From assembly GCF_045037415.1 (NCBI RefSeq), contig NZ_CP173438.1: a DNA stretch of 64,000 nt; one strand, 5' to 3'. The notes under the pieces were generated by a model. The model was not told the origin of the DNA, made no database searches, and worked only from the letters and a program-made list of their open reading frames with translations. Shown piece by piece: positions 47,357-47,977 of the stretch; within the stretch, counting starts at the first letter, position 1, and every line of letters starts with the position of its first letter. Made by a program: the position numbers and the translations under genes. Origin of the DNA: Escherichia coli. GTDB lineage: Bacteria > Pseudomonadota > Gammaproteobacteria > Enterobacterales > Enterobacteriaceae.

Positions 47357-47779
47357 ATGAAAACAAACACGTCAGATTTCACAATAACTATTTCAAAAAA
47401 TGACCAAGCATTAATTGATAACCTGAAATACCTTGCGGAAAAACATAATAACGGACGAATTGCAATTAATTTACGACACATCACAGGAGTAACAATTGTA
47501 ACCAGTTACTGGCATCTATATCTAATCGCTAAATCAGTACTTGAAAACAAAGATTCTGTTGTCAATGGAAGAGATATAGATACTCTTCCTGCACAAATCA
47601 AACCGATAGCCTATCAATTGCGTAATCGTTTTAAAAATGAAGGTGGGATTATATTTGACTTTCCCGCAGCTGTAGCCGTGAGCTTCTCTCGGGGGGATAT
47701 ACTTCACTCATTTCGTTTTGCTCTATCAGGTGACGAGACATTATGGCAGCTAGAAGATGCCGGGAGCAGCCCGGCATAA
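47357..47779 (+). CDS. hypothetical protein (140 aa), AT-rich cargo gene
   Basis: ORF-track 47114..47779 trimmed to MKTNTSDFTI start; markedly lower GC than flanking phage genes. Confidence 0.55.
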   Translation: MKTNTSDFTITISKNDQALIDNLKYLAEKHNNGRIAINLRHITGVTIVTSYWHLYLIAKSVLENKDSVVNGRDIDTLPAQIKPIAYQLRNRFKNEGGIIFDFPAAVAVSFSRGDILHSFRFALSGDETLWQLEDAGSSPA

Positions 47780-47785
47780 ATCAAA

Positions 47786-47977
47786 TTAAAAATCAACCAG
47801 TTGTGTGACAGGTGGGTATTTACGCTGAATTTTGTCAGTTACTAACGCCAGTAATATATGAATCTCTGTGTTTAATGCGTCTTTATCACCCGTCGTTTTT
47901 ACCCTGGGAGGGTTAATGTTATCCAGAGCAGCACTAAGTTCACTCAACAAATTAACAACTTTTTTATCTTCTGACAT
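47786..47977 (-). CDS. hypothetical protein (63 aa), AT-rich
   Basis: AAGAGG RBS 7 nt upstream on the minus strand; convergent with 47357..47779, stops 6 bp apart. Confidence 0.55.
   Translation of the reverse strand: MSEDKKVVNLLSELSAALDNINPPRVKTTGDKDALNTEIHILLALVTDKIQRKYPPVTQLVDF

Follow-up and report, generated by a model that had tools for sequence, protein, structure and literature searches.

The stretch of DNA analysed here (64,000 nucleotides, hereafter the window) corresponds to the P88-like, P2-family prophage Phi1 of Escherichia coli ST131, inserted beside dmsA. It contains two small convergent genes: orfA, on the plus strand at 47357-47779, encodes 140 aa, and orfB, on the minus strand at 47786-47977, encodes 63 aa. 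Both ORFs and the 6 nt between their stop codons (47780-47785) agree with the first-pass annotation, as does their location just downstream of a cox-like gene: orfA starts 4 nt past the stop codon of the gene for a 173-aa Cox protein. The orfA frame is open further back, to an ATG at 47114; RefSeq and GenBank call the 140-aa form. The earlier statement that both genes have good ribosome-binding sites holds for orfB, which has a strong AAGAGG 5 nt from its ATG (47983-47988, minus strand). The site of orfA, a GAGG 11 nt upstream, is only moderate, and translational coupling of orfA to cox is therefore plausible.

The pair had been described as lower in GC than its neighbours, and a GC profile bears this out. 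The values are 38.5% for orfA, 37.0% for orfB and 37.8% for the pair, against 50.0% for cox, 49.3% for the DUF4761 gene on the other side and 52.2% for the whole window. Only 2.4% of the 621-nt segments within the 64 kb are as AT-rich as the pair. Other short AT-rich stretches (GC of at most 0.40 over 621 nt) are found at 34071-35050 and 48641-49330. The most AT-rich stretch of all, 55341-57340, with a GC minimum of 0.29 near 56161, lies just past the replication endonuclease gene (51406-54228), where P2 has its classical gpA-portal (old/tin) hotspot; the EC958 annotation adjoining it lists ParM, a plasmid partitioning/stability protein and hypothetical proteins.

The left flank of the pair is the Cox-family excisionase/regulator gene (46831-47352, plus strand; phrog_23196, E 1.3e-116; 'Cox family DNA-binding protein' in RefSeq), preceded by genes for an HTH repressor and a tyrosine integrase and by the host dmsA. 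To the right lie the DUF4761 gene (48115-48465, plus strand; phrog_2492, E 5.7e-43), phrog_3800, DUF4754 and, further on, the replication endonuclease gene. The C/cox switch region at 46707-46775 contains repeated AAGATAACC-type motifs in direct and inverted orientation (repeats D2, I3 and I8), with a TTGACA at 46711. By analogy, the AAGATAACC-type repeats are presumed to be operators accompanied by face-to-face promoters, and the early rightward transcript with cox and orfA should, if P2 is a guide, start within this region.

Some further features of the early region deserve mention. The Cox protein of the window is unusually long (173 aa versus 67-141 aa in the related phages inspected) and gives a weak PADLOC match to 'mad1' (E 0.0016, residues 65-118). 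In a matching phage record the gene at 50731-50961 is annotated as 'derepression protein', and the adjoining stretch at about 50420-50680 is marked 'similar to ash family protein'. A gene with this 'derepression protein' annotation is also present in the early region of P88.

Three phage records match the region at 100% identity: vB_EcoM-569R5, vB_EcoM-705R2 and an 'Entero_P88'-type prophage of O25b:H4-ST131. A tblastn search of phage records matched the pair in three identical phages only. Among 5,426 complete E. coli genomes, 270 carry the pair-bearing region, all with at least 99% identity. In Phi1 of strain EC958 the counterparts are EC958_RS04815 for orfA and EC958_RS04810 (old tag EC958_1050) for orfB. 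Variation within E. coli comes to only three sites, too few for a dN/dS-type test to gauge selection.

Both proteins are predicted to be soluble, hydrophilic and mildly acidic (GRAVY -0.17 and -0.20), with a pI of 6.9 for OrfA and 5.6 for OrfB. No match was found for either the single sequences or the six-sequence alignments in Pfam, PHROG, NCBIfam or PDB sequences, and none in Rfam. The search of Pfam, PHROG and NCBIfam likewise revealed no HTH or other DNA-binding domain and no match to CII. PADLOC-DB v2 returned zero families at E <= 0.1 for OrfA and OrfB of four of the five lineages described below (the L053 pair was left out of the PADLOC and PHROG searches), and a literature search by protein accession gave no match. 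The two proteins define families that have no annotation anywhere.

The residues that are invariant across the family alignments are few: L23, L26, T49 and Y51 in OrfA, and M1, D4, L11, K53, Y54 and P55 in OrfB, whose conserved motifs are M-[SN]-x-D...LL and K-Y-P. None of the invariant residues in either family is of a catalytic type, and this suggests binding proteins rather than enzymes. Structure prediction was of limited use. AlphaFold gave a poor model for OrfA alone (pLDDT 41.9) and another for a fused OrfA-linker-OrfB with a paired five-sequence alignment (pLDDT 49.5), the latter offering no support for a complex, and the two models agree only on secondary structure. At this low confidence OrfA is predicted to be an alpha/beta protein whose N-terminal part has the order helix, beta-hairpin, helix, and OrfB, in the AF2 model, to consist of two helices. 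Foldseek comparison of these poor models with the PDB found nothing below E 0.4. An internal duplication of OrfA (beta-beta-alpha twice) is weakly suggested by hhalign (E 0.0012, probability 19%). A ribbon-helix-helix reading of the OrfA N-terminus was dropped, as the segment past the first helix resembles a beta-hairpin.

An exhaustive phmmer search of 1.84 billion representative proteins identified one remote relative of OrfA, P0014 (138 aa, 34% identity, E 2.7e-7). It is encoded in a P2-like prophage of Salmonella, where int, C and cox again precede its gene, and the next gene is a convergent one encoding 62 aa, whose product is 40% identical to OrfB. A second phmmer match, the 1073-aa repeat protein P0015, was dismissed as spurious. 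Altogether, the pair is represented in five lineages: the window, Salmonella (L005/L046), L018, L041 and an E. coli lineage, L053. Members obtained through IMG/VR are L018 and L041; L046-L049 were found in Salmonella and L053-L055 in E. coli. Between lineages the pairwise identity is 17-31% for OrfA and 24-45% for OrfB. Even the most distant members align by hhalign, with probabilities of 98.6% for L041 OrfA, 90% for the N-terminal domain of L053 OrfA and 95% for L053 OrfB.

In every lineage the two genes stand tail-to-tail, with stop codons that overlap or lie no more than 13 nt apart, and the pair is located downstream of cox or an excisionase gene (in L053 orfA starts 6 nt after cox). In all five loci for which GC was determined (every one but L053), the pair has 0.35-0.42, compared with 0.455-0.52 for the locus around it. 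Because the proteins as well as the length and orientation of both ORFs are kept in four further diverged lineages, both ORFs are, on comparative grounds, real genes rather than chance ORFs. The other flanking genes differ from one lineage to another, so the pair itself is the unit, and its two genes are to all appearances functionally linked. Their co-conservation could stem from a shared target rather than from mutual binding. The architectural rule described here rests on five lineages of a small family. These observations also speak against the idea that the ORFs are unrelated hitch-hikers, or in part spurious calls in AT-rich junk DNA, lacking a joint function, which is hardly credible: homologues are confined to a few enterobacterial prophages and variation in the E. 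coli lineage is too small for a selection test, but both genes are intact, of similar length and tail-to-tail across five lineages whose DNA is too diverged for a DNA-level search, yet the proteins align (hhalign 90-99%).

The cassette family appears to be rare. Two scans of 100,044 GTDB species-representative genomes found no member, a metagenome scan found the E. coli type only, and a word-indexed search of 5.8 billion proteins found near-identical E. coli copies only. When compared as DNA, the pairs of the other lineages found no match among E. coli genomes or phage records. The Salmonella and L018 lineages contain a near-repeat made up of a ribosome-binding site and the first seven codons (L005 7985-8010 and 8750-8775; L018 3740-3775 and 4450-4485): one copy belongs to the orfA homologue (ATGAAAATCACCACAGAAGAT), the other to the next plus-strand gene (ATGAAACTCACCATCGAAGAT), which encodes a 230-292-aa protein of unknown function. 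This near-repeat may be a recombination boundary for cargo swapping. The same two lineages contain a hydrophobic 37-aa ORF (MYDLKNLCIDILAIIAIACLSTVLMAATIKFIITYLF) directly upstream of the orfA homologue (L005 7877-7990, L018 3629-3742), which has no counterpart in the window.

Comparison with sister prophages, which share the dmsA site or have a related immunity region, shows what else may occupy this position. In P88 cox is followed by DUF4761 with 37 bp between them and the pair is absent, as it is from Chuche, 520873 and SMBL. Homology of the window with P88, Chuche and 520873 (Xuanwuvirus) begins only at DUF4761, which is the first common gene. The ETEC4077 sister prophage has the same pair at the cox|DUF4761 junction. 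The slot is filled otherwise in SMBL, by a single gene for a 68-aa membrane peptide that is hydrophobic at both ends (L051 3478-3684, plus strand), in CFIAFB20180511, by an ECs1072-family phage-associated gene that opposes the early operon as orfB does (L052 3697-4167, minus strand), and in JNEC-KY174, by another convergent pair, encoding 131 and 64 aa. Since different cargo is found at the same place in sister prophages, the cox|DUF4761 junction is a variable slot, and the pair is optional cargo.

The pair therefore does not belong to the conserved early genes of this P2 subfamily, being missing from P88, Chuche, 520873 and SMBL among the P88-like (Xuanwuvirus) phages. Presence that varies between homologous phages with conserved flanks, together with deviant composition, is the mark of a moron or accessory cargo. 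The earlier proposal of horizontally acquired cargo gains support from this absence, from the alternative cargo at the same junction and from the AT-richness of the pair in the measured lineages. Taken together, it is highly probable that the two genes form a real accessory cassette, conserved and horizontally mobile, that occupies a variable slot behind cox. The published P2 hotspots considered are the gpA-portal (old/tin), Z/fun and the tail-CI locus, and the cox|DUF4761 junction was not found among them (PMC9122126; 10.1101/2024.10.15.618418). In the ST131-type strain R8, hit H45 (NZ_CP107172.1, 1612992-1613140) comprises the first 149 nt of orfA only, the rest of the pair being gone; this remnant may reflect a natural deletion or insertion event.

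The two genes differ in their transcription signals, the calls for the orfB promoter and terminator being consensus-level predictions. Upstream of orfB an extended -10-like motif, TGGTATTTT, at 48052-48060 on the minus strand is the predicted promoter. All six loci have a motif of the form TGnTAnnnT ahead of orfB, in five of them between -75 and -83 relative to the ATG, the sequence outside the window being TGCTATGTT, TGCTATCTT, TGTTATGTT or TGGTATTCT. Both strands of the 64 kb together have only five occurrences of the strict motif, a chance frequency of about 5 per 128 kb of strand. In the window the motif is followed by a 14-bp stem-loop at 48010-48041 in the predicted orfB 5' leader, which folds with -24.4 kcal/mol (z -2.55) on the minus strand versus -7.8 kcal/mol (z -0.25) on the plus strand. 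Analogous stem-loops come after the motif in five of the six loci and upstream of it in L053.

Downstream of orfB, a GC stem-loop (GCCGGG-CTGCT-CCCGGC in the orfB sense; 47761-47777, minus strand) resembles a terminator for orfB only. It begins 9 nt after the orfB stop codon, inside the last orfA codons, and has no proper T-tract. An equivalent stem-loop is found in all six loci, 10-30 nt past the orfB stop and within the poorly conserved last codons of orfA. T-runs come after it in L018 and L053, and in the other loci its tail is pyrimidine-rich. In the orfA sense none of the six hairpins is T-rich or followed by a T-run. With its -10 motif, 5' hairpin, strong ribosome-binding site and terminator-like hairpin, orfB resembles an autonomous unit, or moron, placed head-on within the early operon. 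The thought that orfB lacks a terminator, with its transcript running back through cox into C and int, was dropped when the conserved post-stop hairpin was found. Inspection by eye revealed no LexA box upstream of orfB in the window or in L018/L046, and a repeat search found no copy of the switch-region repeats there.

On the plus strand no promoter-like or terminator-like site was found between 46600 and 48400, and orfA is presumably part of the early operon. As no plus-strand terminator was seen from cox to DUF4761, the early transcript would have to cross orfA and the full antisense of orfB on its way toward the replication genes. The predicted -10 motif of orfB overlaps a tract of eight T residues (48048-48055), which lies between this motif and the 5' hairpin and is the homopolymer between EC958_1049 and EC958_1050 that is listed as a 454-versus-PacBio discrepancy at EC958 position 985718. 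Slippage in the length of this tract could alter orfB expression.

Published transposon data shed light on the lysogenic state. In the EC958 TraDIS study of Phan et al. (2013; PMC3789825, Table S1), EC958_1050 has 19 insertion sites, its insertion index is 0.110, and it counts as non-essential; the indices of neighbouring non-essential genes are similar (PMC3789825). The identity of EC958_1050 with orfB follows from its distance to dmsA and from the homopolymer at 985718 just upstream of it. The TraDIS table (PMC3789825) covers orfB and has no annotation for orfA, cox or C. These published data show that orfB is dispensable in the lysogen. This argues against a classical toxin-antitoxin system in which OrfB continuously neutralises OrfA and fits a model with orfA silent in the lysogen.

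The interpretation that we favour, tentatively and at low confidence, is an effector/antagonist pair expressed reciprocally in lysogeny and in lytic growth. Here orfA would be carried on the early lytic operon behind cox, while orfB, as an autonomous unit, would point against that operon. In the lysogen the early promoter would be repressed, and OrfB would be made and OrfA not. Once the early promoter fires, OrfA would be produced, and read-through fully antisense to orfB would silence the latter by antisense pairing and polymerase collision. Since neither family has conserved catalytic-type residues and OrfB is tiny, acidic and predicted to be helical, OrfA is proposed to be a binding-type early effector serving host take-over, exclusion or anti-defence, and OrfB a lysogen-expressed antagonist or regulator of OrfA or of its target. 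The analysis shows how the pair is built, that it is conserved, that it is cargo and that orfB can be dispensed with; we infer the promoter use, the reciprocal expression, any OrfA-OrfB interaction and any phenotype.

It is possible, if doubtful, that the cassette goes further and represents a new kind of module, in which a tail-to-tail effector and antagonist are paired such that the lysis/lysogeny switch flips which of the two is made. This would work by transcripts of the early operon reading through antisense to an autonomous unit that is active in lysogeny. Such a device would be 'state-coupled', whether TA-like, defensive or anti-defensive in function, and would do without the operon-based logic of toxin-antitoxin systems.

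Among the alternatives, anti-phage defence or superinfection exclusion exerted by the prophage, with both proteins acting jointly against incoming phages, holds up best, and we consider it unlikely though worth keeping in mind. The cassette occupies a variable, AT-rich slot between conserved genes in which alternative cargo is found, P2-like prophages are known reservoirs of anti-phage and exclusion systems (PMC9122126; 10.1101/2024.10.15.618418), and orfB looks lysogen-expressed by its predicted signals. However, the proteins are very small and have no conserved catalytic residues, and the lineages scanned gave no match to a PADLOC-DB v2 profile, as a known defence system should. Moreover, orfA, in front of which no promoter-like site was found, would be silent in the lysogen, and the slot is not among the described P2 hotspots.

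Rather improbable is an add-on to the lysis-lysogeny decision, by analogy with cII/oop of lambda or with the convergent promoters of 186, in which OrfA would be a CII-like or anti-repressor-like early regulator and transcription of orfB would mainly restrain the early operon, by antisense action or interference. In lambda and 186, too, cII directly follows a Cox/Cro-like gene, and orfB stands head-on inside the early operon, where its promoter would have to collide with early transcription. Against this, a CII-type regulator should have an HTH and CII homology, neither of which was detected in these acidic proteins, and close relatives such as P88 do without the pair. Furthermore, OrfB is conserved as a protein with motifs and not merely as a transcript, and the terminator-like hairpin would confine its transcription.

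The first-pass annotation had also suggested a small toxin-antitoxin module. In its classical type II form, with OrfA as toxin, OrfB as antitoxin and both made in the lysogen for addiction, this is now disfavoured and appears very unlikely. What suits the idea is that the module lies on a mobile element and encodes two proteins, a larger one and a smaller acidic one. Yet the genes are convergent in all five lineages instead of forming a bicistronic operon, they match no TA family in NCBIfam, Pfam or PADLOC, and no catalytic residue is invariant. The 19 insertion sites and non-essential score of orfB are unlike the behaviour of antitoxins, which, as phage repressors do, score essential in comparable libraries. 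A type I system, with a small hydrophobic membrane toxin and an antisense RNA, fits no better, given two hydrophilic proteins and no Rfam match.

Whether or not the favoured effector/antagonist reading proves correct, the cassette is of some general interest. It sits in Phi1 of the pandemic ST131 clone, nearly unchanged in 270 of 5,426 genomes, has diverged kin in Salmonella prophages, and points to a cargo slot in P2-like phages at cox|DUF4761, inside the early operon. The earlier annotation had overlooked that several lineages of P2-like prophages share the pair as a conserved cassette and that orfB has the signals of an autonomous transcription unit. If reciprocal expression is true, the cassette would be a compact natural case of an accessory function coupled to the state of lysogeny or lysis by orientation alone. 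If it is merely a small moron of minor effect, it is still neither a classical TA module nor a known defence system. What is new here is the two families of unannotated proteins together with their unusual, conserved arrangement, and not a demonstrated mechanism.

Several known systems resemble the cassette in part. With type II toxin-antitoxin modules it shares two genes, a mobile element and one small acidic partner; it differs from them in being convergent, in having no family homology, in the larger protein OrfA having no conserved catalytic residues and in the dispensability of the putative antitoxin in TraDIS. It resembles the P2 accessory hotspots, whose old, tin and fun genes act against incoming phages, as a short variable locus between conserved genes with high cargo turnover, whereas its position at cox|DUF4761 lies inside the early operon and its cargo has no recognised defence domains.

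A closer parallel in layout is offered by lambda cII/oop and 186 apl-cII, where cII directly follows the Cro/Cox-like gene and an early gene is faced by a convergent antisense transcript. Likewise, orfA directly follows the switch gene and its 3' end is overlapped by a short, predicted leftward unit. The leftward unit here, in contrast, encodes a conserved protein, OrfA has neither an HTH nor CII homology, and the module is optional among relatives. Finally, morons, defined in lambdoid phages such as HK97, are autonomous promoter-gene-terminator units between phage genes. The cassette is moron-like in that orfB has its own promoter-like, ribosome-binding and terminator-like signals and in that the whole is AT-rich, missing from the closest relatives and inserted between two operon genes. 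A classical moron is a single unit that usually has the orientation of its neighbours or is independent of them, whereas orfB is always accompanied by a second gene, orfA, riding on the phage operon, and the two form a conserved convergent pair.
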